Under the pieces are notes generated by a model. It ran no database searches. It was not told the DNA's origin and worked only from the letters and a program-made list of their open reading frames with translations. The translations under genes were made by a program, and so were the position numbers. Shown here piece by piece: positions 552 through 63,806 of a stretch of 64,000 nucleotides of DNA (the stretch's first letter is position 1; each line of letters opens with the position of its first letter). The stretch comes from a virus. The DNA lies in the IMG/VR virus record IMGVR_UViG_3300028195_000197, positions 3,248 through 67,247 of that record. One strand, written 5' to 3'.

Positions 552-1601
552 TTATTTATAATGAATATTGAAAACTTTATCGTTCCAGATTTCTAAGATT
601 CTATCCAAAGCAAACCTTTCCTTTGCTAACTTCTGTACTTGCATAGCATTTTCTTTCAACTTATCTTGATTTCTAAGCGTAGCCACTACTGTATCTACAA
701 ACTCTCTATTCCATTCAGGAGAGTAAACATTTCCAGCAATTACAGTCCCCATGTTTGTAGTCCTTGTTGCCCCAACATCACTTGTAATAGGGTAACATCC
801 AGCCACTTGATTTTCAGCAGTAGCGATACCAAAAAGCTCATCATAAATAGATGGGTACAACTCCAATTGTGCTTCCAGTTGATGCCTAATAAGTTCATCT
901 CTCTTTACCGCACCAAGATACGTTACTCCAGGAAGCCTAGCAAACGTAGTCTTGAATTGCTGTGTAGCAGTAGGGTCTGCCCATTCACTCCATAATCTCC
1001 AATCAGACGTAATCACCAAAGATGCTTCTGGAACATCTCTAACGATTTCTGCCCATGCAGCATGTAACTGCATTACACCTCTATCAGGCATATGATTGAA
1101 GATACAACGATAAGGAACTTTCTCTACTTCATTTTCTTCATACTCCCATATACGAATTGGAATGTCTATGGTAATAGTGTCCTGAATGCCATAAATATCT
1201 CTAAAATAATCAGCATGACGTTCTGAGATAGTAACAATCTTATCTACTTTTTGAGCAAACTTTCCAAAGTCTCCCTTTGTATGTTGGTCACAAGACACCC
1301 AAACTTTCAATCCTACTGTATCGGGAGTAAGTCTATCGTTAGGAGAACGCCACACAATTACAACATCTCTTTCATCTTCTGGAACAAAAGCATCTACTGG
1401 AAGTTGATTGAATACAGAACTATTAGGATACTTAGGACTGTTATAAAGAGTTACTTCATGTCCAGCTTCATGCCAAGCTCTACAAATCGTGAGAAGGAAT
1501 AGCTCCGCGCCTCCTACGCCCATACGACCATCTTCACCAGAAATACTTTTCTCTGATACTTCAAGAGGGCTGCCATCATTGCAAAGCAAGTCAATTTTCA
1601 T
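552..1601 (-). CDS. GT4-family glycosyltransferase
   Basis: GGAE N-terminal motif; YPSIYDELFGIATAENQVAG (ExFG...E) C-terminal motif. Confidence 0.88.
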   Translation of the reverse strand: MKIDLLCNDGSPLEVSEKSISGEDGRMGVGGAELFLLTICRAWHEAGHEVTLYNSPKYPNSSVFNQLPVDAFVPEDERDVVIVWRSPNDRLTPDTVGLKVWVSCDQHTKGDFGKFAQKVDKIVTISERHADYFRDIYGIQDTITIDIPIRIWEYEENEVEKVPYRCIFNHMPDRGVMQLHAAWAEIVRDVPEASLVITSDWRLWSEWADPTATQQFKTTFARLPGVTYLGAVKRDELIRHQLEAQLELYPSIYDELFGIATAENQVAGCYPITSDVGATRTTNMGTVIAGNVYSPEWNREFVDTVVATLRNQDKLKENAMQVQKLAKERFALDRILEIWNDKVFNIHYK

Positions 1602-1821
1602 TTTTCTTCTCCGCTAGTCTGAATTCTTTACACGTAAATACTCCATCCACTACTGGACAGCTAGTGCATTGAGACACCCAAAATTTTTGGATACCATTCC
1701 AATCTACAACAAACCCATGCTCATGTAGTTTATGCCCACACTCACAGACAGCATTGAAAATAGCCAATTCCGCTTCATCCTTACCATCTGCATAATCGTC
1801 AAAAATACTAAATTTTATCAT
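1591..1821 (-). CDS. Small Cys/His-rich (Zn-binding) protein
   Basis: CECGH..H, CxxC, C. Confidence 0.5.
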   Translation of the reverse strand: MIKFSIFDDYADGKDEAELAIFNAVCECGHKLHEHGFVVDWNGIQKFWVSQCTSCPVVDGVFTCKEFRLAEKKNEN

Positions 1822-2546
1822 AGCGTATACCCTAATTTTCTTATTGTCGCTCCTAACTGTTCCGCCGCCTGTTTCTTGTGTTCGTCAGTAAACACATCTT
1901 TCCATTCCCCAGGAACGCCCCTTCTAAAAGTAGGGTTTCCGTGTCTCGGTTTTAGATGTTCAAAATTCCAAGCTGTATTTATCGTTATTTCAGGAGCAAG
2001 GAACTCTTTTATCTTTTCTAACGTCTCTATTCCGTTCAATCTCAAATCTTCATATTTTACAGTATAAACAAAATCGTGCTTCATCCACCCTAGCCAATTT
2101 AGCCATCTACAAGATGCAAATTCTATTAGGTATTTTATGGGGTCTCCAGAACCATATACTGTTCTACTATCCTTCATGCGGAAGTTCCAAAGAGCGTGAT
2201 CTGAATTTCCCCTGCTAAACAGCTTCATCATATTGTAATACTCAGAAACTATAATGTCTCTAGGGTCTCTAATATTAAAAAGAACTTTAGTAGGCTTCTT
2301 TTGTATAGCTACTGCATATTCTGGCAGGTAAGATACGTGACCAAATTTTCCTTTATAAAATTCTTCTAGCGCATTTACTGTTACCAGTATACCGTCCTTA
2401 TCTATGGTATTCTCCAATCCAACGTAATCTGGAAGATTATGAGTCCCATTATGACTTCTGTCTACAATATCCGCCGTAATTCCAAAAGCGGGCATAATTT
2501 GATGAGTTCCTGACTTTTGATATGATGTAATAAACAATCTAGCCAT
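1818..2546 (-). CDS. PAPS-dependent sulfotransferase
   Basis: 5'-PSB YQKSGTH, 3'-PB RDPRD..VS, YEDL, RRG..GEWK; start moved to MARLFITS. Confidence 0.88.
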   Translation of the reverse strand: MARLFITSYQKSGTHQIMPAFGITADIVDRSHNGTHNLPDYVGLENTIDKDGILVTVNALEEFYKGKFGHVSYLPEYAVAIQKKPTKVLFNIRDPRDIIVSEYYNMMKLFSRGNSDHALWNFRMKDSRTVYGSGDPIKYLIEFASCRWLNWLGWMKHDFVYTVKYEDLRLNGIETLEKIKEFLAPEITINTAWNFEHLKPRHGNPTFRRGVPGEWKDVFTDEHKKQAAEQLGATIRKLGYTL

Positions 2547-2547
2547 G

Positions 2548-3264
2548 TTATTCCTTTGCCCAAGGAGGAAGCCTTTTCGGTTTTCCTGCAAAATTAAATG
2601 GGTGACTTGTCTTTATCCCAACGGAATTATACCACTTCACCTTATCATCTATAGTATCTGGATGCCACGACTTGTGAAGAAGAGCCATAGGCACTTTAAG
2701 TTCTTCATAGTCTGACGATATTCCTCTATAAGTAGCATGATGCTTTTGCTCATCTGCGTATATGTCTAGTTCATCAGGTCGCCATGCCCATAAAGCCAAA
2801 TAATCCTTATCAAAATCTCTATTCATATAAGGGAAGAACTCTCTATCTCCCCACATATATAACCTAAAAGCATTGACTTGAGATTTACTTGTATGTTCCA
2901 GTACCTTCCTAGCATTTCTTCTCAATGTATAAGTAGGAACATCGTCCATATCATCCAATATTAGCCAATCTGGAGATAGTTTCTTCGCTTTTTCTAGCAC
3001 AAAATTTATGTGAGGATTATCTGGATTCCACGAACATCCAGTTGGAAACTTTTCCACGACATCATAATTATGTATAATAACTTTCTTATTCTTGGATAAC
3101 AGGTTCAAAGAATCATCTGTACTTCCACCATCTGAAACTACAATAGAATCTGCAAAGTCGTATCCGTGCAAAAATCTTTCTATATTCTTCTCTTCGTTTA
3201 GACATCTAACAGCCACCACAATATTGACAGATTTTTTCATGCTAATATCTTTTAGCCTTTTCAC
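2548..3264 (-). CDS. GT2-family glycosyltransferase
   Basis: LNEE..I, DGGSTD, DxD-like LDDMDD. Confidence 0.85.
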   Translation of the reverse strand: MKRLKDISMKKSVNIVVAVRCLNEEKNIERFLHGYDFADSIVVSDGGSTDDSLNLLSKNKKVIIHNYDVVEKFPTGCSWNPDNPHINFVLEKAKKLSPDWLILDDMDDVPTYTLRRNARKVLEHTSKSQVNAFRLYMWGDREFFPYMNRDFDKDYLALWAWRPDELDIYADEQKHHATYRGISSDYEELKVPMALLHKSWHPDTIDDKVKWYNSVGIKTSHPFNFAGKPKRLPPWAKE

Positions 3265-3823
3265 ACATAAACCAAAACTCTTGGTTAGTATTCTTTCTCC
3301 ATATCACATTCCATCCAGAACGCTTCAATAAGAAATTCCACTGATCTTCTTCCAATACAGAATAATGTCCCTGCCCTACACGCCCCCAATAGGCGGGGTT
3401 TGGAAGAACAAGGCATAGGAAGTGTGCTGATACCCTGTACCACTCCATTAGGGTAAGCAGTGGGGCAGGACTATGCTCAAGGGAATGACGAGAGAAGATA
3501 AGTCCAAAGGATTCATCTGCAAACTCTTCTAAGAAACTAAAGTCTCCGTTGATAACATTCTTTCCTAAACCTTTTAATTTCTCTACATCCATTCCGTTTG
3601 AGATACCAGTGTATTCAATGCCTAATTTCTTGAAAAATCCTTCTGCAATAGCAGCATCTCCGCACCCAACATCAAGGACAGTTTTTACACCCTTTAACCC
3701 GCTTATCCATTCTGTCATAATGCCTCGCATAAGCGCAGTATGTCCTTTATCAGGAGGAGATGGGTAGTCATCTTTTATAAGTTCGTTTAAAAAGATGTTC
3801 CAATTCCTGAAATCTCTCAGCAT
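3242..3823 (-). CDS. Class I SAM-dependent methyltransferase (probably sugar O-methyltransferase)
   Basis: VLDVGCG, SRHSLEH; glycan-cluster context. Confidence 0.8.
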   Translation of the reverse strand: MLRDFRNWNIFLNELIKDDYPSPPDKGHTALMRGIMTEWISGLKGVKTVLDVGCGDAAIAEGFFKKLGIEYTGISNGMDVEKLKGLGKNVINGDFSFLEEFADESFGLIFSRHSLEHSPAPLLTLMEWYRVSAHFLCLVLPNPAYWGRVGQGHYSVLEEDQWNFLLKRSGWNVIWRKNTNQEFWFMCEKAKRY

Positions 3824-5160
3824 CCTTCTCTCCCTTCTAAGAATTCTCTAAACACAGAAATAATATAGTCCATGATTTCAGGTGTCATGCTTGGATGTAA
3901 TCCTATCCAGAAAGTCATTTCTGTTACAATATCGCTATTGTAGAGTTTATCTTGAACTAAATATTCAATATCTCTATAGGCTGGCTGTCTTAATAAGTTA
4001 CTTCCAAAAAGAAGCCTTGTTCCAACTTTATTCTTATCCAGATGAGCTATAAGTTCTGCTCTTGTGAAGTTACAGGCATAAGATTTTATTGTGATAGGAA
4101 AACCAAACCAGGAAGGTTCACTATCTAAAGCAGGTCTAGGAAGGATGAACCAATTCTCAAACTCTTGCATCTTCTCAAACAAATAAATAAAATTATACCT
4201 ACGCGCCTCAACTATTTCATCCAACCTATCTATTTGTGAAGACAGAAGAGATGCCTGTAAGTCTGTCATTTTTAAGTTGTAGCCTAAACGAGTGTAAACA
4301 TATTTATGGTCATATCCTTCTGGCAAACCTTCAAATTTATGTTCAAAGCGTTTCCCACAAGCAGCATCCTGTCCAGTAGCACAGAAACAATCTCTACCCC
4401 AATCTCTAAGAGATTTCACAACCTTAGAAATCATAAAACTATTTGTAAGAACTGCCCCACCTTCACCACCAGAAATATGATGAGCGGGATAATAAGAATG
4501 GGTAGAAATATCTCCGTAGGATTCCACAGGCTTTTCTTGAAAAGTGCTACCTAAAGAGTCACAGCAATCCGACATCATAAATATATTATATTCTCTACAA
4601 AGGTCTTCAATAGCTTCTGCATCAAATACATTACCCATTGTATGAGCAAGAATAACTGCTTTTGTTTTTCCTTCTACAATCGCTTCTGCTATATCTTCAA
4701 CATCAGGAACATAAGTACCTAAAGCTACATCTACAAATACAGGAATAGCTCCTGCTTGAATAATGGCATTTACGGTAGTGGGGAAATTTACAGCAGTGGT
4801 TATGACTTCATCTCCAGGCTTTATTCTTCTTTCACCAAACTCAGGAGCGGTCATAGCCATAATAGCAAGAAGATTTGCACTACTGCCACTATTACACAGT
4901 GTAATATATTTAGAAGAATTTCTAAGATAGCTCTTTAGTTTTCGTGTATATTCTCTAGCGTATTTCCCTTCTGTATACCACTTATCTAAAGCACACTCCA
5001 CCAAAGATGCTACATCAGCACCATTCCAAACATCTCCACCATTATACATAGCTCCATGTGTAGGAATGAAAGTTTCTCCAGGAATAAATTCATTATGCGT
5101 TCCTGAAACTAAATGTTTTACGGCTGCTACAATTGCACTCTTCCCAAGTTTATTTAGCAT
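3817..5160 (-). CDS. rfbH: CDP-4-keto-6-deoxyglucose-3-dehydrase (E1, RfbH/DdhC family)
   Basis: NSGSSANL, DCCDSLGS, YPAHHISGGEGG (His in place of Lys), WGRDCFC...C, YDHKY, GYNLK. Confidence 0.9.
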   Translation of the reverse strand: MLNKLGKSAIVAAVKHLVSGTHNEFIPGETFIPTHGAMYNGGDVWNGADVASLVECALDKWYTEGKYAREYTRKLKSYLRNSSKYITLCNSGSSANLLAIMAMTAPEFGERRIKPGDEVITTAVNFPTTVNAIIQAGAIPVFVDVALGTYVPDVEDIAEAIVEGKTKAVILAHTMGNVFDAEAIEDLCREYNIFMMSDCCDSLGSTFQEKPVESYGDISTHSYYPAHHISGGEGGAVLTNSFMISKVVKSLRDWGRDCFCATGQDAACGKRFEHKFEGLPEGYDHKYVYTRLGYNLKMTDLQASLLSSQIDRLDEIVEARRYNFIYLFEKMQEFENWFILPRPALDSEPSWFGFPITIKSYACNFTRAELIAHLDKNKVGTRLLFGSNLLRQPAYRDIEYLVQDKLYNSDIVTEMTFWIGLHPSMTPEIMDYIISVFREFLEGREGC

Positions 5161-7287: not shown

Positions 7288-8236
7288 CCAATCTAAACTC
7301 CTTCAACACTTTACTAACAAGTGCATCATAGGTAAAATCTTCCATGTTAACTTTATTATATGCAGCAAGAGCAATCTCTTCTGCTTCGTGTGGACTATTC
7401 AATGCCCACTGCACTCTAAGAACTGCTTCATCTAAATTATCAAATCCTAAATAATGATGACCTTCTTTGAAGCCGAATCTTTCTAAATCATCGCACCTAT
7501 CAATGATGGGGCAGAGTTTCATTGCCATCAATTCAAATACACGAGCGTTCAAATCCCCCAAAGATGACCAATTCAATCCCAATTTCGCTCGATTATTCAG
7601 TTCTCGATATTCATCAAATATTGGCCCATTCTCAAATAGAACAGAAACACCTAATGAACGTAACTTGTTTACCCAATCAACTCTTTGCTGGTAAGGCATA
7701 CCAATAAGAACAGCGTCAGTATCCTTTTCAATCTCTGTCATAGGATAATGCACATCAGGGTCAAACGCATAATGCAGTAAAACATCATCACCTTGAGCGT
7801 ATTTGGGATGCATATTAAAAAATTTGTCAGATATGTTTCTGGAGTGAGTATAGTCAAGACAATGCCCATCCGTACCTACCGAAGCAACAAATCCATCAGT
7901 AGGTTTATCTACAAAATCTGCCCCTGCATTGATAGTGATTACCAAATCTGGAATCCATGAACCTAGTTGCGCTTTTACCAGCGCATAAGGAACACGAACA
8001 TTTGGCTTAAATGGAGTTACAATTGTAGGAGGCTTTGCGTATTTTTCTAATACACTCATCCCACCCAGCCAAGGAATCCAACTGCCAGTATATGCTCCAC
8101 AGTTTTTGAAGTCTATGTTAGGATTTCTCTTGAAAGCGTTTTCCCAGTATCGAGACATTGAAAGTGGATACCAATCTGATAAGCACAATACCTTTATTTT
8201 TTCTTTCGGAATTCCGTGCATCATTTTGTCGCCCAT
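7280..8236 (-). CDS. Glycosyltransferase (CgeB-like GT-B)
   Basis: LNARVFELMA, F..G.HY..F, EEIA..AY signature. Confidence 0.8.
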   Translation of the reverse strand: MGDKMMHGIPKEKIKVLCLSDWYPLSMSRYWENAFKRNPNIDFKNCGAYTGSWIPWLGGMSVLEKYAKPPTIVTPFKPNVRVPYALVKAQLGSWIPDLVITINAGADFVDKPTDGFVASVGTDGHCLDYTHSRNISDKFFNMHPKYAQGDDVLLHYAFDPDVHYPMTEIEKDTDAVLIGMPYQQRVDWVNKLRSLGVSVLFENGPIFDEYRELNNRAKLGLNWSSLGDLNARVFELMAMKLCPIIDRCDDLERFGFKEGHHYLGFDNLDEAVLRVQWALNSPHEAEEIALAAYNKVNMEDFTYDALVSKVLKEFRLDE

Positions 8237-8892
8237 TTTTCTCTAAACTTTTCCTGATTTATTCTTGTACCTTTCTGTCTATCTTCCCCATATCCTATAG
8301 TCTTGCCTCCAAGGTGCATCACAACTTCTGGAGAGAGTGACCATAGATCGTAACCCTTTTCTAAAGCTGTTGTAGAAATATCTACATCTTCAAAATCGTT
8401 AGGAGCATATCTAGTATCAAAATATCCTAATTCTTCCCAACCTTCTTTAGTAGTTGCCAGAACAAATCCTTCTGCATAAGGGAATACTTTACCATCAAAC
8501 TCATTCCATCCAGTAGTCTCAGTATATATTTTTCCACTGATTAATGTTTTTGGACATTTTTCTAATCTCTTTTCAATTTCTTCAAAGAAACCTTTGTAAA
8601 CCCTAACATCCGTTGATGCTAAAATAACCACATCTCCAGACGCTTCTTTTAGCCCCTTATTAGAAGTTAGAAGAAATCCCAAATTTTTTTCGTTGTGGAT
8701 GACAGAAATATTCAACATACCACTTCCTAACCACCAAAAAATACCGCCCCTAAATCCATCTTCTGTACTTTTGTCATCTACAATAATTATATCTAAAGTA
8801 TCTTTACTTCCTTTAGTATTATATATATCAAACAAAAGTTGATGAAGTAGTGCCCAATTGTTATAAGCAGGAATGACTACAGTAGTTTTCAC
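8221..8892 (-). CDS. GT2-family glycosyltransferase
   Basis: VVIPAYN, VDDKSTE, NLGF, FEDVD. Confidence 0.88.
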   Translation of the reverse strand: MKTTVVIPAYNNWALLHQLLFDIYNTKGSKDTLDIIIVDDKSTEDGFRGGIFWWLGSGMLNISVIHNEKNLGFLLTSNKGLKEASGDVVILASTDVRVYKGFFEEIEKRLEKCPKTLISGKIYTETTGWNEFDGKVFPYAEGFVLATTKEGWEELGYFDTRYAPNDFEDVDISTTALEKGYDLWSLSPEVVMHLGGKTIGYGEDRQKGTRINQEKFREKWATK

Positions 8893-32085: not shown

Positions 32086-32391
32086 ATGTACACAGAAAAA
32101 ACAAAAGTAATTTTTAGGACATTTAAAGATATTGATGAGGTAATTGCTTTCTTTCCTGAGGAACTAGGTACTAATGATTTAAATACTTGTAATTCCTACA
32201 TGCACATTGGACAGCATGGGAGTGCATATACTCATATTACAAGTAAAACCAGACCATCCACAAAAGAAGAAATTAAACCCATCTATGATGAACTAAAAAG
32301 TATTGGATATAATCTGGTAGTGAAAAAGAAATTCTTGTATAGCCATTTTATCACACGAAGAGACAAACTAAACGCAATCGGGAGAAAATAA
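32086..32391 (+). CDS. Phage early hypothetical protein
   Basis: VIFR..IA.FP..SYMHIGQH..L..IGY. Confidence 0.7.
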   Translation: MYTEKTKVIFRTFKDIDEVIAFFPEELGTNDLNTCNSYMHIGQHGSAYTHITSKTRPSTKEEIKPIYDELKSIGYNLVVKKKFLYSHFITRRDKLNAIGRK

Positions 32392-32933
32392 TGTTTTATA
32401 ATAAATGGGCAGAAAAACAAGCAAAAAGAAATTATGATTCTGACGGGTTAGATTTTACCACTTATAGCCATTGCTATATTTGCGGTAAACCATCAAAAGC
32501 AAAAACCGTCACGCTAAACGGCTTTCATCCTGCTTGTGAGCGTAACGAATTAAAATATAAACCAAATAAAAAGAGCAATTTTAAAGCCCTCGCTAAACTT
32601 CCAAAATTTAATAAATCCTTTCCTATCCTGTCTCATGTATACATCATTGTAAAAAATGGCTTTCTTTGCTTTGTTATGACAGATTTAGAGAAAGTAAAAC
32701 ACGGAATCATAGAAGGGGTAAAGGGAAATTGTAATATATGTGTACCTCGTGATGTTTTTGTTGATACCATCATTCTGTTATCCAATGAAGGAGAAGATTT
32801 TACCATTGCACAGGATGATGAAACCATGAGTATGATTATCAGCACTAAGAACTCCAAAACAACTATTAAGGGAATTGATAAAAAAGAATTTCCAAACATC
32901 AAAGAAATTTTAGATCGTCAAAAGGATGTATAA
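32391..32933 (+). CDS. Zn-finger fused to DNA polymerase III beta-clamp domain I (truncated DnaN-like)
   Basis: CYICGK..HPAC then PILSHV...TDLE...ICVP...IKGID..EFP. Confidence 0.7.
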   Translation: MFYNKWAEKQAKRNYDSDGLDFTTYSHCYICGKPSKAKTVTLNGFHPACERNELKYKPNKKSNFKALAKLPKFNKSFPILSHVYIIVKNGFLCFVMTDLEKVKHGIIEGVKGNCNICVPRDVFVDTIILLSNEGEDFTIAQDDETMSMIISTKNSKTTIKGIDKKEFPNIKEILDRQKDV

Positions 32934-33075
32934 GATTATGAATGATTATAAAAAGAAGTCTCCTCCTGTCACTCATGCGGATTTTTATAAGGCATCACAG
33001 GAGAGATTTTCTCAGTATCTAGTTAGTAAATCCGTACAATTAGCGAAAGATTATACAGTAGAAAAGGAATAACAC

Positions 33076-33285
33076 ATGAACGCAGAAGACCTTTTAGAAT
33101 TCGGTAGACAATTTTCCAATTTGGGATGGTCAATACAAGACCAAATACAAACTATGCTTGATGGAGACTTTAGCGACATTAATCCTAATGCTTTTCGTAT
33201 TGCAAAGCAAAAACTGTCTGGTTATAGTGAGGATTTAGATAATTTCTTGCTTGACTGTGAATTGAATTTGAAACATGAAGATTAA
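33076..33285 (+). CDS. Small acidic hypothetical protein
   Basis: RBS. Confidence 0.6.
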   Translation: MNAEDLLEFGRQFSNLGWSIQDQIQTMLDGDFSDINPNAFRIAKQKLSGYSEDLDNFLLDCELNLKHED

Positions 33286-33368
33286 AATTTTCTAATAAAA
33301 ATCCCTGTTCTACTCATCCAGGATTAATCTACATAGTGTAAAATTACTGTGTAGATAAAAAGGAGAAA

Positions 33369-33596
33369 ATGATGGACGGTAAAATTCACAATAAAGAAAC
33401 TTTGCTTTATGGATGTAAAAAAGAAAGCCCCGATTACATGGAGGAGATTTTGCATCACCAAAAAGGTTATGTAAATAGAGACAAACTAATTTCTGCTTAT
33501 TCAGAATGGGCAGAAGAAAATGGCTATGATAGATTGAGAATTTCTGTTATTGATTTATCTATTCCTCCAGATTTTAAATCCACTGTAAATATTTAG
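33369..33596 (+). CDS. Hypothetical protein
   Basis: AAGGAG RBS; degenerate TAAT-box promoter. Confidence 0.65.
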   Translation: MMDGKIHNKETLLYGCKKESPDYMEEILHHQKGYVNRDKLISAYSEWAEENGYDRLRISVIDLSIPPDFKSTVNI

Positions 33597-34332: not shown

Positions 34333-34995
34333 ATGAAACTATCAGAAAAAACCATCTTTGAAGAAGTGAAAGATTTGGAAGTGAAAAACCGTGAACGTCT
34401 CTTGGAACTTTACACTGAACCCCGTGTAATCGGCATCATTGGTGATATAGGAACATCCAAAAGCAACACTGCATACTTCATCATAGATCAACTTTTAGAA
34501 AGATATGATATGAACCTTTACACTTTTGGATTGAGAAAAAAGATAAAGGGAGCGATTGCAATTTATCAGGTGTCTGAATTAGAGAAGTTGCGTAACGCTA
34601 TAATCTTTTTAGACGAAGCCAATTTATTGCTGGACATTGAAAACAGAACGAAGAAAAAGAAAATTCAAGAAATGTTTCAACTATTAGCGCATAATAATTG
34701 TCATGTTACTTTGATTAGCCCTCCTAACACGTTCAAGAAATTTCTAGCTGCAAAACTTACAGCTATGATTTTGCACGAGATTACAATCGCTCAATGTATC
34801 AATCGCTCTTATGTAGCAGATACCGTACAAACGTACAGCGGATTAGAGAGAGGTTCTACTATGCTCTCATTGCCACGAGGCAAGGCTATCATCTTCGATG
34901 GAGACCATTATCATCCTGTTTCTATACCATACGTTCAGGAAGCAGATACGAAAAAAGATAATCCATCACTACTGAGACCAAAAATAAAAGGTTAG
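34333..34995 (+). CDS. P-loop ATPase (ASCE; Zot/FtsK-HerA-like)
   Basis: IGIIGDIGTSKS, IIFLDEA. Confidence 0.75.
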   Translation: MKLSEKTIFEEVKDLEVKNRERLLELYTEPRVIGIIGDIGTSKSNTAYFIIDQLLERYDMNLYTFGLRKKIKGAIAIYQVSELEKLRNAIIFLDEANLLLDIENRTKKKKIQEMFQLLAHNNCHVTLISPPNTFKKFLAAKLTAMILHEITIAQCINRSYVADTVQTYSGLERGSTMLSLPRGKAIIFDGDHYHPVSIPYVQEADTKKDNPSLLRPKIKG

Positions 34996-35301: not shown

Positions 35302-35519
35302 ACTTCCCCACTCTTACAGCCCTAAAAACCTGGGCAGACTATAAACTTCCTGTCTATCTTCCTTTTGACCTAGAAGAAGTAGACACAACACAAAGAGACC
35401 TTCCTAGAGACATCGTAGAGATGCAGAAGGATGGAATGTTTCACTACTTCAAAGAAGATGGGGGATTTCACCTCCTGATGAGTAGTAAAAATAGTTTAGT
35501 AGAAGGAGAAATAGAATGA
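35298..35519 (+). CDS. Hypothetical protein
   Basis: AAGGAG RBS. Confidence 0.6.
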   Translation: MNFPTLTALKTWADYKLPVYLPFDLEEVDTTQRDLPRDIVEMQKDGMFHYFKEDGGFHLLMSSKNSLVEGEIE

Positions 35520-35779
35520 AAGAAGGTGATTTGAGAGTGTGGCATATCCCACAAATTCCTGGAGATGCTTTTTATGTTCCTGTTTCTTCTCCAGAAGAAG
35601 CTGGAAAGTTGCTGAATACCTTAGCACAATATGACCTATTCCAGTATGAGAACAATATAAAACCTGATTACTCTAATGCGTCTGGTTTAGAAGTTGTTGA
35701 ATCTGGTGAATGGTGCGAATGGTATAGCAAATATGACGAAGATATTGACGAGTATTTAGAAGCTGAAATAGATGAATAA
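35516..35779 (+). CDS. P22 gp17-like superinfection-exclusion-bypass protein
   Basis: LRVWHIPQIP...YDLFQYENNIKPDYSNA.GL closely resembles recalled P22 gp17. Confidence 0.8.
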   Translation: MKEGDLRVWHIPQIPGDAFYVPVSSPEEAGKLLNTLAQYDLFQYENNIKPDYSNASGLEVVESGEWCEWYSKYDEDIDEYLEAEIDE

Positions 35780-41049: not shown

Positions 41050-41262
41050 ATGTTAGTTAGAGAATTCTTATCGCGAGGATATACCCAATGGGTAGAAGTT
41101 CATTATTCCATTGCTGGAACTACTGAGCAAGCTAAACTTTGGTTTGCTGATAAAGGTCTCTCTGGTGAATTCTTCCCCATGTATTTCAATGAACCTGATG
41201 AAGATAAACCAAGAGAAGGAAGATTTGGGTTTTGGTTGCCAATAACGAAGGAGAAAAGATGA
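41050..41262 (+). CDS. Hypothetical protein
   Basis: AAGGA RBS. Confidence 0.55.
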   Translation: MLVREFLSRGYTQWVEVHYSIAGTTEQAKLWFADKGLSGEFFPMYFNEPDEDKPREGRFGFWLPITKEKR

Positions 41263-41684
41263 GAGAGCTAAAGTTTCGAGCTTGGTATCATAAAGGAACT
41301 TATTGCAAAGAGCCTAAGATGTACTGGTTTGATTTGATGTGGGGGAATACTTCGCAGCAAGGGTCTGGATGGATTGGAATGTTGCCCATTGGAGAAACAA
41401 GAAAATACAGAATGATGGGGGATAACAGAAAGCAGATTGACCCTGATGATTGTGAGATTATGCAGTTCACTGATTATCAAGACATGAATGGCGTTGGTAT
41501 TTGCGAAGGGGATTTGGTTCAAGATGAACAATATATCAAAGAGATCGTTTTCCATAAAGGTGTATTTACAGTAAAGAATACAGATTCAAGGTTTGCTTTA
41601 CCTGCATCTGGCGACTATCTCAGAGTATATGGACATAGCCTTGAAGTTGTCGGAAATATCTACGAGAATCCTGAATTATTATGA
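41259..41684 (+). CDS. YopX-family protein
   Basis: MRELKFRAW, MQFT..D.NG..I.EGD, EVVGNIYENPELL. Confidence 0.9.
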   Translation: MRELKFRAWYHKGTYCKEPKMYWFDLMWGNTSQQGSGWIGMLPIGETRKYRMMGDNRKQIDPDDCEIMQFTDYQDMNGVGICEGDLVQDEQYIKEIVFHKGVFTVKNTDSRFALPASGDYLRVYGHSLEVVGNIYENPELL

Positions 41685-43414
41685 AATCAATTAGAGACCT
41701 GCCCATAAAAATCATACATGAAATCCCTCCTGTACTCAGTAGCAAAGAAAAATGTGCAATTGATACAGAATGGTTTTTGATGGATAAGGATAGACTTCAT
41801 CGTCCTGTACTCACTGATGGCTCACCAAATGGATTTTTAGCGTGTGTGACTTTCTGCTTCAATGGTGAGGATGTGTATTTCGTAACCAATCCTGATGATG
41901 TTCAGGAAGCAATGGACAATGTATCAGAGGCTACACAAATTTACGCAAATTGCAAATTTGATCTTGTTCATCTTCGTAGACATGCTCATATTCCAGTTAG
42001 AATAAATAAACTTTGGGATGTAATCACACTAGACCGCATCATGTGGTCTGGTCTCTATTCCAGCTTTACTTTAGCTGACATTACTAGACGCAGATTACAC
42101 ATGCACCTTCCTAAAGAAGACAGGAAGGATTTTGCTAAAGCGGATAAACTTACTCCTGAATTGGAGCAGTATAGTGCCTACGATCCTGTGGCAACGTGGC
42201 ACGTTTATCAACATCAAATCCGTGACGTTCTAAAGAATGACCCTAATGCTCTAAAACTATGGGCAGAAGTAGACCTTCCTGCTCTAAATACCGTTATGTC
42301 CATGAAAGGTTTCAAAGCCAATAAAAATTTGTGGTATGAAATTGCAGATGAGAACATGGAAAAGAAAACTTCTCTGCAATCTAAATATGATATAAATCTA
42401 CGGTCAGCAAAACAAGTAGGGGAATTATTAGCTTCTCAGGGCATTGAACTTCCTAAAACCGCCAAGGGAAACTACTCTACAGCAATAAAGACATTAGAAG
42501 GTATGGAAGACCCTAATGAAACTATTTTAGACCTGATTGAACTATCATCTCTGAAATCTAAGACAACTACTTATGGTAGAGGATTTATGGAGAATTCTGT
42601 AGAGCCAGATAACAGGATTTACGCAGACTTCAATCCTCTTCGAGCTGCAACTGGTCGCTTCGGATGCTCAAAACCTAATCTACAAAACGTACCTAATAAA
42701 TACACTGACCCTAGATATAGAGAGTGCTTTATAGCAGGAGAAGGAAACGTGTTAGTAGTAGGAGATTGGTCATCTCAAGAACCTAGAGGTGGTGCATATC
42801 TAGCACAAGATCAGACTATGATAGATATTTTCAATGACGATAAAGATATTTACATTGAATCTGCTCGTCTTATGTTTGGATGGGAATTGACTAAAGATGA
42901 CCCTAGAAGAAGTCACCCCATCAAGCCAGTTGTTTTGGGCGCATTTTATGGTCTGACGAAACATGGTCTATTCAATAACAACCAGATACCTAAAGATGAA
43001 GGTGAGAAACTTCTCAATAAGTTCTTTGAAGTGTTTCATGGAGTAGCTGATTGGATTGATGAAATGAGAGATGGTAGAGAGTATGTTGAAACTATCATGG
43101 GCAGAAAGTATTGGCTAAATCCTTATGACTACAAGAGCAGGAACAATGCTTGCAATTCTCCTGTACAAGGGTCTGCCAGTGACGCTATGAAGATGGCTGG
43201 ATGGGAGTTTGTGAAGCAATGGGGTGACTTAGAACACTCTCCTATCGTAAACTTTGTCCACGATGAAATGATAATTGAAGTTGCAGAAGAAGATAAAGAT
43301 AGAGCCATGACGTTACTAGACGAATGTATGGTGTCTGTAGCTGAAAAGATGCACCCAGGTGTCAAAGCTCGTGCAGATATAGGGTTCGGGCAAAATTGGA
43401 GTGCAAAAGCGTAA
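41681..43414 (+). CDS. polA: Family A DNA polymerase with 3'-5' exonuclease
   Basis: IDTE, FD, YD; TGR....PNLQN, DWSSQEPR, K...LG..YG, NSPVQGSASD, VHDE. Confidence 0.93.
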   Translation: MKSIRDLPIKIIHEIPPVLSSKEKCAIDTEWFLMDKDRLHRPVLTDGSPNGFLACVTFCFNGEDVYFVTNPDDVQEAMDNVSEATQIYANCKFDLVHLRRHAHIPVRINKLWDVITLDRIMWSGLYSSFTLADITRRRLHMHLPKEDRKDFAKADKLTPELEQYSAYDPVATWHVYQHQIRDVLKNDPNALKLWAEVDLPALNTVMSMKGFKANKNLWYEIADENMEKKTSLQSKYDINLRSAKQVGELLASQGIELPKTAKGNYSTAIKTLEGMEDPNETILDLIELSSLKSKTTTYGRGFMENSVEPDNRIYADFNPLRAATGRFGCSKPNLQNVPNKYTDPRYRECFIAGEGNVLVVGDWSSQEPRGGAYLAQDQTMIDIFNDDKDIYIESARLMFGWELTKDDPRRSHPIKPVVLGAFYGLTKHGLFNNNQIPKDEGEKLLNKFFEVFHGVADWIDEMRDGREYVETIMGRKYWLNPYDYKSRNNACNSPVQGSASDAMKMAGWEFVKQWGDLEHSPIVNFVHDEMIIEVAEEDKDRAMTLLDECMVSVAEKMHPGVKARADIGFGQNWSAKA

Positions 43415-46353: not shown

Positions 46354-46531
46354 AATGCTTTACACATATAAATGTACATCATGTAAACATCAATTCACTT
46401 ATAATAAAAAAATAAGTGATGAAACCAAACCTCTCTGTCCAGTATGTGATTTGAAGACAGAGAGAGTTTTTACTTCCGTTCCTGTAATATATAAAGCAAA
46501 TGGATTTTATTCTAAGGATAACCAAAAATGA
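46354..46531 (+). CDS. FmdB-family zinc ribbon protein
   Basis: Y.YKC..C.H.F...CP.C...R......YK..GFY..D. Confidence 0.8.
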
Positions 46532-47079
46532 TAAAAGATTTAGTGTGTGCAGATGCCTGGGAGTGGATGAGGGAACAGCCTGATAATGCAGTTGACCATA
46601 TAATTACAGATTTTGAATATGGTCAGCCTTTTTATCTTGATGAATGTATTCGCATTTGTAAGGGGAACATCATTACTTTCTGTGCATCAGAAGACCATCC
46701 ATTTGACCCTACAGAAAGAGCTTACTGGATAAAAACCCCTAGCACAAAGAACTATTCCAAAAAATTAGGCAGATTTGTAGAAAAGATATTTATTTACCGT
46801 CAAGGAGAAATCTACAACCTTTTACATTGGTCTCAGATGACTGGAGTATACGAAGATAGAGTAGTAGAACGTAAGGGGCATCCTTGGAGAAAGCCTTTGT
46901 CTCTGATTGAGCGTTTAGTGAGGATATATACTAATAAAGGAGACACTGTTCTTGACCCTTTTGTAGGGACTGGTACTTTACTAGAATCTTGTCAAAATTT
47001 AGATAGAGATAGTATAGGGGTGGATAATGATATGCAATGGATAACTTATTGTAAAGAATCTTACGGTCACTGGATGTAG
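46528..47079 (+). CDS. N6-A/N4-C DNA methyltransferase, beta class, atypical catalytic motif
   Basis: IITDFEY, HPW.KP, VLDPFVGTGT. Confidence 0.75.
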   Translation: MIKDLVCADAWEWMREQPDNAVDHIITDFEYGQPFYLDECIRICKGNIITFCASEDHPFDPTERAYWIKTPSTKNYSKKLGRFVEKIFIYRQGEIYNLLHWSQMTGVYEDRVVERKGHPWRKPLSLIERLVRIYTNKGDTVLDPFVGTGTLLESCQNLDRDSIGVDNDMQWITYCKESYGHWM

Positions 47080-57912: not shown

Positions 57913-58119
57913 TTGAAGGGAATCTTGGATATTAATGATTTATATGAATTCAGTCTCAACATTTTAGAACCAGTACTGACGGGAATGTTTACCAAAGATG
58001 AATGTGAACATGAAGTGGATTCAAATTTAACTTGTAAGTTATGCAACAAAAAACAAATTGCAGTATTTGGGGAAAATGAAGACTTTGTACGACATATTTT
58101 TATAGAAAAATGGGAATAA
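57913..58119 (+). CDS. Small Zn-binding protein
   Basis: AGGAG then TTG; CEH...CKLC. Confidence 0.5.
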   Translation: MKGILDINDLYEFSLNILEPVLTGMFTKDECEHEVDSNLTCKLCNKKQIAVFGENEDFVRHIFIEKWE

Positions 58120-58130
58120 GGAAAGAAAGG

Positions 58131-59102
58131 ATGAGAGAAATTGAAACTGTTTTCGGGGACTGTCTTCTAGTTAGTAATAAGATACCTGATGAAAGTGTTG
58201 ATTTAATACTGTCAGATGTACCATATGGGATTATGAAAGATTCTCCTAGTACATGGAATAAGAACAATACTAAATGGGATACTGCAATAAGTCCAAAAAA
58301 GATATTTGCTATCGCAAACAGAGTATTAAGAAAAAAAGGTAAATTGATTCTGTTTAGCCAAGAACCTTATACAAACAAACTGATTACATCTGCGATAGCT
58401 GACATTCCATTTAGCTATAGAGCAATATGGGAAAAAAATAGCTTCGCTAATAATTTAGGTGCAAAAAGAAATATGGTGTCCTTTTTTGAAGACATTTTAG
58501 TATTTAGTAAACATTTAGAAAGTGAACGCAATGATGACAATCCATGTAAAGACTATTCGGAGAAGTTATTTGCCTATATAAATAAGCCCCTAACTTTTTT
58601 TAACACTTACTATGGAAATAGTAAGCTAGTTCATTTCTATACTAAAGGAAAACAATTTAGATTGTGTACAGAGAGTATGTATAATAGTTTAATTGACGAT
58701 TTTAACATTAAAAATATGGAAGGGTTTATTAGCTATAAGAAATTAAAACGTTTAGATGAAATATATAAGGGAAGATTTAAAAGTATCTTTAATCTTTGGG
58801 AAGGGGGTAAGTATAAAAGCAACATACTAAAATATAAAAAAGATTCCATCTCTTTTCATCCAACACAAAAACCTGTGATGTTAATGGAAGACCTGATAAA
58901 GACTTTTAGTAATGTTGGTGATGTAGTAGTAGACTTGACTTGCGGCTCTGGCTCTACTTTAGTGGGGTGTAAGAATACTGGACGTGATGGTATAGGGATA
59001 GATAATGGTTATTGCGAAAAAGATAAAATTGTAAATGGTATTCAGTTAAAAGGATTGAAATGGGTAGAAATTGCTCAACTAAGATTGGATAAAGTTCTCT
59101 AA
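58131..59102 (+). CDS. N6-A/N4-C DNA methyltransferase (beta class)
   Basis: GDCL, LSDVPYG, HPTQKPV, DLTCGSGST. Confidence 0.88.
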   Translation: MREIETVFGDCLLVSNKIPDESVDLILSDVPYGIMKDSPSTWNKNNTKWDTAISPKKIFAIANRVLRKKGKLILFSQEPYTNKLITSAIADIPFSYRAIWEKNSFANNLGAKRNMVSFFEDILVFSKHLESERNDDNPCKDYSEKLFAYINKPLTFFNTYYGNSKLVHFYTKGKQFRLCTESMYNSLIDDFNIKNMEGFISYKKLKRLDEIYKGRFKSIFNLWEGGKYKSNILKYKKDSISFHPTQKPVMLMEDLIKTFSNVGDVVVDLTCGSGSTLVGCKNTGRDGIGIDNGYCEKDKIVNGIQLKGLKWVEIAQLRLDKVL

Positions 59103-62569: not shown

Positions 62570-62612
62570 CTAATTCTACTTTAATCTATTTATATGCGCA
62601 ATGTGGTATTAT
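62570..62612 (+). promoter_or_regulatory. TAAT-box promoter (MTase cassette 3), leaderless
   Basis: CTAAT-N6-TTAATCT-N19-TATTAT-N6-ATG. Confidence 0.75.
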
Positions 62613-62618
62613 CTCTCT

Positions 62619-63806
62619 ATGAAAAATATAAACGTACTATCCCTATTTGATGGAATGTCCTGTGGGCAAATTGCTTTAGAAAGAGCAGACATTTCAGTAA
62701 AGAATTACTATGCGTCTGAAATCGACAAATTTGCCATCTCCCATACTCAATATCGACATCCTAATACTGCTCAACTTGGAAATGTCAAGAATTGGGATAA
62801 GTGGAATCTTCCTAAAATAGATTTGCTTTTGGGTGGTAGTCCCTGTCAAGGATTTAGTATAGCAGGAAAGAGATTAAACTGGGAAGACCCTAGAAGTAAA
62901 CTATTTTTTGAATATGTTAGTTGCTTACATCACTATAAACCTAAGTATTTTTTATACGAGAACGTGGCAAGTATGAAGAAAGAGATAAAAGATGCAATTT
63001 CTCTCGAATTAGGTGTAGAGCCTGTGATGATAAATGCTGCATTAGTTTCCGCACAGTCAAGGAAAAGACTTTATTGGACAAATATTCCAGATATAACTCA
63101 ACCAGAAGATAGAGATATTCTTCTTAAAGATATTCTTGAAGAAGTTGATGCCATTGAAGAGAAATATTATGTGAGAACTGGTCATGCTGGAATAAAAAAG
63201 TCTTCGGAGCAAAAAGCTGGATGTTTAACTGGTGGAGGAAATTCTGGAGGGAACCATAGTGACATGACTTTGGTTTATGGGGGAGCTATGCGTGGAAGAT
63301 ATAATAAAGATAGAACAACTACACAAAAATTTGAGAGTAACAAAATACAGAAATCAAATTCTCTAACTACTGTCGGAAAAGATAGTCTAGTACATCTAAA
63401 AACTATTCCACATGGATACATAAAGGAATCGAAAAAAGATATAGAAAAGTACCCATCTTTATGTGCCCAATCTCCGGCATCTAAGCATCTAATTAGATTA
63501 GGAAGTGCTGTTAACATCAAAGGACATGATTATAATAAGCGCGTCTATAGTCCAGAGGGAATATCCCCCACACTGCCCACTTTTTCAGGAGGAAATCAAC
63601 ATATCAAGATCGCCGTAACGGAAGATAGATGGAGACGACTTACAGTAACAGAATGTGAACGTCTTCAAACAGTAGAAGATAATTGGACATTGACCCCATA
63701 TAAAAATAGAATGATGAGCAATTCTCAAAGGTACAAAATGTTAGGAAATGGATGGAATATCGAGACCATCGTACATATACTGTCTCACATTCCTACCTCA
63801 ATGTAA
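62619..63806 (+). CDS. C5-cytosine DNA methyltransferase
   Basis: LSLFDG, GSPCQ, ENV, Q.R.R, ECERLQ, LGNGW. Confidence 0.93.
   Translation: MKNINVLSLFDGMSCGQIALERADISVKNYYASEIDKFAISHTQYRHPNTAQLGNVKNWDKWNLPKIDLLLGGSPCQGFSIAGKRLNWEDPRSKLFFEYVSCLHHYKPKYFLYENVASMKKEIKDAISLELGVEPVMINAALVSAQSRKRLYWTNIPDITQPEDRDILLKDILEEVDAIEEKYYVRTGHAGIKKSSEQKAGCLTGGGNSGGNHSDMTLVYGGAMRGRYNKDRTTTQKFESNKIQKSNSLTTVGKDSLVHLKTIPHGYIKESKKDIEKYPSLCAQSPASKHLIRLGSAVNIKGHDYNKRVYSPEGISPTLPTFSGGNQHIKIAVTEDRWRRLTVTECERLQTVEDNWTLTPYKNRMMSNSQRYKMLGNGWNIETIVHILSHIPTSM

Follow-up and report, generated by a model that had tools for sequence, protein, structure and literature searches.

To our knowledge, sliding clamps carry two or three clamp domains per subunit, and this holds for every solved clamp in the VIA-align listing. 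The locus described here raises the question of what a phage does with a gene that encodes one such domain, preceded by a Cys/His motif and followed almost immediately by a stop codon. The gene could be a decaying piece of a clamp gene, an accessory of the phage's own DNA metabolism, an adaptor acting outside replication, or, as the earlier note on this DNA proposed, a poison of the host replisome. The source, a virus record in IMG/VR, is 67,247 bases long (linear class, estimated to be 68% complete), and the window analyzed in this work is the stretch of 64,000 nucleotides that corresponds to bases 3248-67247 of the record. The phage is far from the cultured ones: its PolA has at most 28% identity to anything in 50,697 phage records, and the sole nucleotide match of the 6-kb neighborhood of the gene is a segment of 68 bases (87% identity) in the gp17/gp18 region of N4-like coliphages.

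The ORF is present as the earlier note had described it. Its ATG shares one nucleotide with the stop codon of the preceding ORF (TAATG), and the encoded protein, P0001, is laid out as a short helix, the motif C28-x2-C31...H46-x2-C49, the clamp domain, and a helix of 10 residues. The features of the gene and its translation start are as follows:

32391..32933, + strand: gene for the 180-aa protein with a putative zinc knuckle and a single clamp domain (P0001), stop codon included (ORF list and translation)
32380..32384, + strand: GGGAG Shine-Dalgarno-like box, 6 nt 5' of the ATG of P0001 (read from the sequence)
32086..32391, + strand: upstream gene for a 101-aa protein, overlapping the P0001 gene in TAATG; a possible partner, in an arrangement kept in locus L007
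32472..32537, + strand: putative zinc knuckle, C28-x2-C31...H46-x2-C49 (ligand conservation)
32547..32906, + strand: complete clamp domain of the DnaN domain I type, residues ~53-172 (Pfam, PHROG, NCBIfam, PDB profile, AF2, Foldseek, VIA-align)
32898..32927, + strand: short C-terminal helix, residues 170-179, at the place where DnaN has domain II (AF2, block pLDDT 90)

P0001 carries a real and complete DnaN domain I. The earlier note had made its reading depend on a match to a DnaN profile, and such matches exist in Pfam, in PHROG, in a PDB profile search and in a protein-wide search. The Pfam family PF00712 (DNA_pol3_beta N-terminal domain) matches residues 75-170 over profile positions 25-119 of 120 (E 4.1e-5); P0001 scores 24.2 bits in hmmscan, 0.2 under the gathering score of 24.4, and 24.8 bits, above the cut-off, in the six-frame genome scan, while the relatives P0011, P0013, P0022 and P0032 score 25.9-48.5 bits. 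PHROG 947 ('DNA polymerase processivity factor') is matched with E 1.5e-6, and TIGR00663 (dnaN) with E 3.5e-6 over model positions 22-121 of 367 only, the 26.2 bits of P0001 not reaching the equivalog cut-off of 137.65 bits. With a profile built from P0001 and four relatives, 31 PDB sequences were found at E <= 10, of which 29, the 10 best included, are beta clamps or clamp fusions; the best match is 6deg (E 2.6e-5), and nearly all matches align over clamp domain I. The same five-sequence profile yielded 333 matches at E <= 0.001 among 1.84 billion representative proteins, headed by about 18 short proteins, with the usual clamps of 360-370 aa appearing from E ~1e-10 on.

The structure was modeled by AF2 from an alignment of 106 rows (A4), an earlier run with five sequences (pLDDT 42.9) having been discarded. 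The model, whose clamp fold is partly built in because full-length clamps are present in its alignment, has a mean pLDDT of 85.5 (>90 across residues 81-170) and consists of strands 82-88, 91-97, 102-108 and 111-119, a helix at 120-133, strands 138-142, 147-151 and 156-160, and a helix at 170-179. It has the two beta-alpha-beta-beta-beta halves that make up one clamp domain in the DNA clamp fold. In Foldseek, E. coli clamp chains came out on top (E 1.1e-6), and 165 PDB chains were found at E <= 0.001, all 33 listed being beta clamps. In VIA-align (48,161 chains), the best match was 7ybd_A, residues 6-119 (Z 12.6, rmsd 2.5, 109 residues), and the chains at Z >= 8 were beta clamps in 16 of 16 cases, mostly over domain I alone, followed by 9-1-1 and PCNA. 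The earlier note had placed domain I at residues ~75-170; this segment is what PF00712 covers, but the domain is wider, since beta1 and alpha1 are present in the alignments, and is complete over residues ~53-172. That the ORF ends after domain I was correctly seen: the stop lies 12 residues past the EFP linker, and no clamp chain aligns further, the VIA-align matches ceasing at about residue 172-177.

P0001 is a real gene under selection and not a pseudogene. Its relatives are 88-46% identical to it, and the copy in locus L007 differs by 30 synonymous and 21 non-synonymous substitutions (dS 0.35, dN 0.05, dN/dS 0.14). The central (PF02767) and C-terminal (PF02768) clamp domains were not found in P0001, nor at E <= 10 in any frame of the 67,247-base record, with positive controls recovered in 10 and 11 of 14 genomes. 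A second clamp-like ORF was not found in the record either, the family profile matching the P0001 gene alone. The earlier note had proposed conservation of the truncation point, and a look for full-length relatives, as a check against a recent pseudogene. The stop point turned out to be common to all relatives found, down to ~30% identity, and no relative with a full-length clamp was among them: in a local re-scan, P0001 had 5 residues after the domain envelope, and each of the 21 other aligned members had between 0 and 12. Domains II and III were never present within this lineage. P0001 has the features that define the family, namely, a C-terminal clamp domain, a stop no more than 12 residues after it, and a CxxC...(H/C)xxC motif before it.

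The relation of these proteins to full-length clamps was analyzed in a domain tree (IQ-TREE quick, LG+G4, 124 columns) of 147 rows. Of these, 23 are complete single-domain proteins, 106 are at least 330 aa long, and the other 18 are ambiguous and probably fragments; two false positives, three fragments, three proteins with a domain-splitting insertion, and the near-identical cluster members P0155-P0178 were left out. Nineteen of the 23 single-domain rows, P0001 included, group in a single clan (SH-aLRT 98) that contains none of the 106 full-length rows; P0022 joins it weakly (support 64). The clamp-only proteins P0024, P0032 and P0089 branch with P0083 and three longer clamp-like proteins (support 93), and their position apart from the main clan implies that one-domain forms arose at least twice. 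Identity between the family and the 83 remaining clamp-type proteins of the alignment (A4 rows 24-106) is 18-32%. These comparisons indicate that the single-domain family is an old, diversified phage lineage.

The family is known from metagenomes only. A tblastn search with P0001, P0022, P0024, P0089 and P0139 gave no match in 50,697 phage records, and no relatives were found in the IMG/VR scans or in the GTDB genome scan. The metagenome scan returned seven short loci with relatives, all of them stretches of small phage-type genes, and the clusters of relatives that were looked up are metagenomic and bear at most the name 'hypothetical protein'. Some candidate clamps were rejected in the course of these searches. 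P0019 (2975 aa, with '11 stretches') and P0078, considered as giant clamp-repeat proteins, are really Big_12 Ig-repeat proteins and profile false positives. The 'DNA polymerase beta subunit' of Salmonella phages is, in phage S144, a split PolA piece, and the S144 record has no clamp-like match.

The N-terminal CYICGK...HPAC segment pointed out in the earlier note holds the four Cys/His ligands C28, C31, H46 and C49, all of which are unchanged in seven of seven close relatives; the motif His is replaced by Cys in a more distant clade. Among the 22 aligned members, the full four-ligand motif is present in 15 and the motif is lacking in six, one member being an N-terminal fragment. Residues 1-62 of P0001 have no Pfam match, and only weak sub-threshold hints (GFA, DUF6011, FYVE) were obtained for the N-terminal parts of the family. 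We infer that the motif probably binds zinc. Many members (~250 aa) possess an additional N-terminal Cys-rich module, the member P0016 has an unrelated N-terminal region of 180 aa, and some members are the clamp domain by itself; across the family, the clamp domain is joined to at least four different N-terminal arrangements.

The P0001 gene is located in a + strand block (24.9-47 kb) that opens with ~30 small ORFs, nearly all of them without a family. The only two named neighbors are a superinfection exclusion gene of the N4 gp17 type (PF17420, E 7e-25) and a weak Lar-like match. The following genes of the block and its surroundings bear on the interpretation:

34333..34995: gene for a 220-aa P-loop protein, one of two sub-threshold PF00004 matches
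from 38403, + strand: primase-like gene, 5.5 kb downstream of the P0001 gene
from 39471, + strand: DnaB-like helicase gene
41681..43414, + strand: PolA gene (phrog_17, E 3e-90), 8.7 kb downstream of the P0001 gene
from 45023, + strand: UvsX-like recombinase gene

The phage thus has its own PolA, as had been claimed. The placement of the gene 'among early takeover genes' and away from the replication module holds in part: the small ORFs, the exclusion gene, and the distances to the primase-like and PolA genes agree with it, whereas the gene precedes the replication genes on their own strand, among neighbors that nearly all lack a family. Since a scan for promoters and terminators performed no better than chance (65 found versus 71.9 expected from shuffles), 'early' is an assumption. 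A takeover role would likewise suit a gene that is surrounded by small ORFs and separated by 5.5 kb from the closest replication gene. The 101-aa gene recurs in L007 with the same 1-nt overlap (7666..7971 / 7971..8558), and a homologue (33% identity over 85 aa, E 4e-13) is found in locus L002, of the P0010 lineage (34% identical to P0001), upstream of the clamp gene with one ORF between; this arrangement may be plain synteny, because these phages have other genes in common too. No usable PDB, Pfam, PHROG or Atlas match was obtained for the 101-aa protein or the 220-aa P-loop protein. With respect to a clamp loader, the record contains no PF13177 match and only the two sub-threshold matches to PF00004; the missing loader is weak evidence, as the record is ~68% complete.

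The reading that we rank first, with a probability of roughly one in three (about 0.35), is that P0001 is a candidate clamp-fold accessory that would be bound to DNA, associate with itself and assist the phage in its own DNA metabolism, working as a ring or arc or as a UL42-like tether. P0001 would bind DNA via its basic face and the zinc knuckle, and its copies would self-associate edge to edge, beta8 of one with beta4 of the next, as domains do inside a clamp ring; the outcome could be an arc, a six-subunit ring, or a loader-independent DNA tether like herpesvirus UL42/UL44. A ring of this kind, a homo-hexameric mini-clamp, had been named in the earlier note as its alternative. In this role P0001 would work for the PolA/primase/helicase/UvsX-type DNA metabolism of the phage and not in host poisoning, and the variable N-terminal modules of the relatives would be swappable handles for DNA or partner proteins. 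What puts this reading first is the basic charge of the channel face, the Cys/His motif, a phage ancestry that is old and diversified, the site upstream of the replication genes, and the stability of the host clamp dimer. Its structural side concerns two segments of the domain:

32547..32621, + strand: beta1-alpha1-loop segment, residues 53-77, ELKYKPNKKSNFKALAKLPKFNKSF, lysine-rich, net charge +7
32844..32894, + strand: beta8 edge strand and EFP linker, residues 152-168, TKNSKTTIKGIDKKEFP; the dimer interface in DnaN

Each clamp domain gives two helices to the lining of the DNA channel, and alpha1 is one of them. Residues 53-77 align to E. coli DnaN 1-27, which on the channel side comprises helix alpha1 and the loop holding R24, and follow the family pattern 'K..K.NKF..LSKLPK..K'. 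On average, 18 members have a net charge of +6.3 in this segment (7.8 basic residues) and 106 full-length clamps one of +2.7 (3.9), where the Mann-Whitney p of 7.5e-9 is descriptive and no independent-sample probability, the rows being related; for the whole domain, the net charges are +1.0 and -1.8, respectively. A strongly basic beta1-alpha1 face has no part in capping a clamp: such a segment has no evident need in a capping-only protein and is needed in a DNA-bound one, which favors the accessory over the poison.

The beta8 strand with the EFP turn is the best-conserved part of the family ('NSK.TIKGID..EFP'), with G161, E166 and P168 at least 90% conserved in 22 members. Pairing of the edge with another strand would lead one to expect such conservation, which is consistent with any edge-pairing model, whether the partner is domain III of the host clamp or beta4 of a second copy. 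An acidic beta4 complementing the basic beta8 was considered as a general argument and rejected, as it is seen in only some members of the second clade; the beta4 edge of P0001 has net charge 0. That the beta4/beta8 complementarity is not general counts against the accessory reading, and so does the loader-like gene that was not found. A complex prediction with four copies of residues 53-180 (A4) gave ipSAE values of 0.00 and 0.00 and counts neither way on self-association. We regard as improbable the special case of a natural one-domain sliding clamp, in which six copies would stand head to tail round DNA with no dedicated loader, the alpha1 lysines would line the channel, and six zinc knuckles would serve as handles for a PolA-type replisome. 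Two- and three-domain clamps are thought to stem from a single-domain stage by duplication, and a six-copy clamp, if true, would be a living example of that stage.

Second in rank, and a tentative candidate, is the poison of the host replisome favored by the earlier note. A lone domain I would offer its beta8/alpha2-end edge to host clamp protomers at their domain III edge and so keep newly made protomers or loader-opened clamps from ring closure, or it would occupy the clamp-loader subunits that touch domain I. In favor of this, beta8 stays DnaN-like ('SK.TIKGI'), with conserved lysines in place of E. coli R105 (K156) and S109 (K160) and the hydrophobic L130 in place of L82 (the other correspondences are R103 to N154 and L108 to I159), and it is more basic than in the 106 full-length clamps (net charge +1.9 versus +0.85). 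In the E. coli interface, according to the available portion of PMC12269063, K74, L82, R103 and R105 of domain 1 face I272, L273, E298-E304 and D307 of domain 3, and the basic domain-1 residues pair with the acidic E298-E304 and D307. The same portion gives the beta dimer as highly stable, with a Kd of 65 pM upward, from which we infer that poisoning by subunit capture would be kinetically hard within one infection cycle. As regards the loader, gamma2 has most of its contacts with domain I, and the binding site of gamma1 and delta' is between domains I and II, as stated in the accessible text of PMC11139829, which also provides a phage precedent for clamp targeting, Twort Gp168 (structure 7evp). 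The location of the gene in a block of small ORFs beside an exclusion gene of the N4 gp17 type would suit a poison as well. In phage N4, gp8 acts on the delta subunit. On the other hand, the protein-binding pocket of a clamp is formed between domains II and III and is missing from domain I, so P0001 cannot soak up clamp-binding partners, and the old phage ancestry of the family, with 18-32% identity to the 83 clamp-type proteins and with variable N-terminal modules, is not that of a recent copy of a host clamp.

A further candidate, in our opinion unlikely, is an adaptor or regulator outside replication, in which the clamp domain would be a protein-protein or DNA-tracking module and the zinc knuckle a specific binder. 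One conceivable role is in transcription timing, comparable to that of T4 gp45 or, during late transcription of Mu, of the host clamp; others are recombination, repair, and service as a decoy that diverts a host defense. T4 (PMC7892883) and Mu (PMC12867686) employ sliding clamps to activate transcription, as far as the text at hand of these two sources goes. The at least four N-terminal arrangements, together with the stand-alone clamp domain, are typical of a reusable module, and translational coupling to the conserved 101-aa gene is predicted. Nevertheless, no positive evidence singles out any one of these processes: the PADLOC defense-system models gave no match, and no sigma-like or RNA polymerase-binding partner was identified among the nearby genes.

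That a full-length clamp gene, of phage or host origin, is decaying here into a functionless remnant is hardly credible: this reading could appeal to the single-sequence PF00712 score barely under the gathering score (24.2 versus 24.4) and to the second group of short clamp-only proteins that branches with longer ones and suggests truncation more than once, but against it stand the dN/dS of 0.14, the end point kept in 22 of 22 aligned members, the SH-aLRT of 98 for the clan, the lack of any trace of domains II and III in any frame, and the good ribosome-binding site with a coupled start.

In full-text literature searches (supplements outside their scope), no study of phage one-domain beta-clamp proteins was found, and the literature searches brought up no one-domain clamp subunit. 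Short viral ORFs with automatic clamp names are present in BFVD and the ESM Atlas, so the bare existence of such ORFs is already visible in databases; what appears to be new is a known clamp domain in an architecture of one domain per subunit plus a putative zinc knuckle, which was not found described in these searches. The significance lies in a conserved, selected family with one clamp domain per subunit. If P0001 forms rings, it would alter the picture of clamp construction and evolution. If it mimics the clamp interface, it would represent a new phage route to disable the host replisome and would mark the dimer interface as a target at a site other than the usual drug pocket; alternatives to that pocket are discussed in the accessible part of PMC11139829. 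Either way, P0001 is a small expressible protein for studying clamp-domain interfaces in isolation.

Among the known systems, DnaN (PF00712/PF02767/PF02768; TIGR00663) is the closest. P0001 shares with it the fold and homology over all of domain I, including the motifs LPIL, TDLE, VP..F.D and IKGI...EFP, and differs by having one domain instead of three, an N-terminal Cys/His motif and a much more basic beta1-alpha1 segment; because domains II and III are absent, it can have neither the partner-binding pocket of DnaN nor its head-to-tail dimer ring. T4 gp45, PCNA and 9-1-1 share the clamp-domain fold with Z scores of 5.4 (6drt), 4.9-7.8 (PCNA) and up to 8.0 (9-1-1) in VIA-align, whereas they have two domains per subunit and dedicated loaders, and a sequence relation to P0001 is not detectable. 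Over the known clamps, the number of domains per subunit varies (three or two) while the ring stays at six domains.

Twort Gp168 binds the host clamp and blocks its loading, according to the available text of PMC11139829. It is no clamp homologue and plugs the DNA channel, while P0001 is itself a clamp domain; the two would have the target and an early-gene logic in common if the poison reading were right. The short phage ORFs named 'DNA polymerase III beta chain, N-terminal' in UniProt/BFVD are also single clamp-like domains, for example A0A6J5L0N7 (123 aa; Foldseek E 1.4e-3) and A0A6G8RAZ0 of Salmonella phage rivia (150 aa; E 1.7e-3). They are 12-14% identical to P0001, carry automatic names and, judged from length alone, have no Cys/His motif; viral clusters of 120-153 aa with PF00712 are likewise found in the ESM Atlas.

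The herpesvirus processivity factors UL44 (1t6l, Z 6.7), PF-8 (Z 6.3) and BMRF1 (Z 5.5) have the clamp fold in common with the P0001 model (VIA-align). These factors use a basic DNA-binding face, and neither a loader nor a closed ring, to hold on DNA the viral polymerase, whose C-terminus they bind. UL42, UL44, BMRF1 and PF-8 come from eukaryotic viruses, have two domains and are unrelated in sequence to P0001, which has one domain, with the basic face present. The herpesvirus factors provide a working model for a loader-free tether.

The clamp-domain gene is preceded by a small gene that accompanies it in two lineages, and other small genes lie in the same block:
32086..32391, plus strand: gene for a 101-aa protein, with counterparts at 7666..7971 in L007 (the locus of a close relative) and at 343..804 in L002 (the P0010 lineage)
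34333..34995, plus strand: gene for a 220-aa P-loop protein with Walker A GDIGTSKS and Walker B IIFLDEA
35516..35779, plus strand: gene whose product is homologous to superinfection exclusion proteins of the N4 gp17 type (PF17420, E 7e-25)

The stop codon of the 101-aa gene overlaps the start of the clamp-domain gene in the sequence TAATG, and the gene is kept beside the clamp-domain gene in both lineages (33% identity, E 4e-13). The 101-aa protein, which contains the motif SYMHIGQHG and matched no family in Pfam, PHROG, PDB or Atlas, could be a partner of the clamp-domain protein. The P-loop gene follows the clamp-domain gene at a distance of 1.4 kb; its product has no family in Pfam, PHROG or PDB, the sole signal being a sub-threshold AAA match (16.3 bits). 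Within the superinfection exclusion gene, the 68 bases at 35623-35690 share 87% DNA identity with 14 N4-like Escherichia phage records and represent the sole nucleotide match within the 6-kb region, a possible hint of an enterobacterial host or of gene exchange with N4-like Escherichia phages.

The small-gene block is locally mosaic, since the three small ORFs at 32926..33596 of the window are missing from L007, where the clamp-domain gene leads directly to the Lar-like gene. Compared with the window protein (32391..32933), P0004 and the L007 copy (7971..8558) carry an 11-residue near-duplicate insertion in the alpha1-beta2 loop, LPKFKGKTYPI, placed ahead of LPKFNKSFPI. In L006, another metagenomic locus with a relative, the gene is represented by two ORFs in different frames, either because of a contig frameshift or because the gene is truly split:
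1988..2266: N-terminal Cys-rich module
2279..2749: zinc-knuckle-plus-clamp part

Two other proteins matched by the family profile, P0019 (2975 aa, E 3.5e-13) and P0078 (461 aa, E 6.3e-6), were ruled out as members of the clamp family: the first is built with 23 Big_12 Ig-like repeats and the second with 4, and their scores are sums of many weak stretches, a warning that false profile scores can build up on repeat proteins.

Elsewhere in the window, the following genes were found:
552..5160, minus strand, and 46528..47079, 58110..59102 and 62601..63806, plus strand: genes resembling those of glycosyltransferases and aminotransferases, as well as three for DNA methyltransferases
41232..41684, plus strand: 150-aa ORF overlapping the start of the PolA ORF
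41681..43414, plus strand: PolA ORF, 577 aa

Taken together, the genes of the first of these entries suggest that the phage has functions for modifying DNA or surfaces. With no more than 577 aa, the PolA ORF corresponds to the polymerase portion of phrog_17 (positions 687-1231 of 1445), and the 150-aa ORF overlaps its start; the 3'-5' exonuclease of this phage may therefore be a separate polypeptide, like that of Salmonella phage S144, which has a split PolA.
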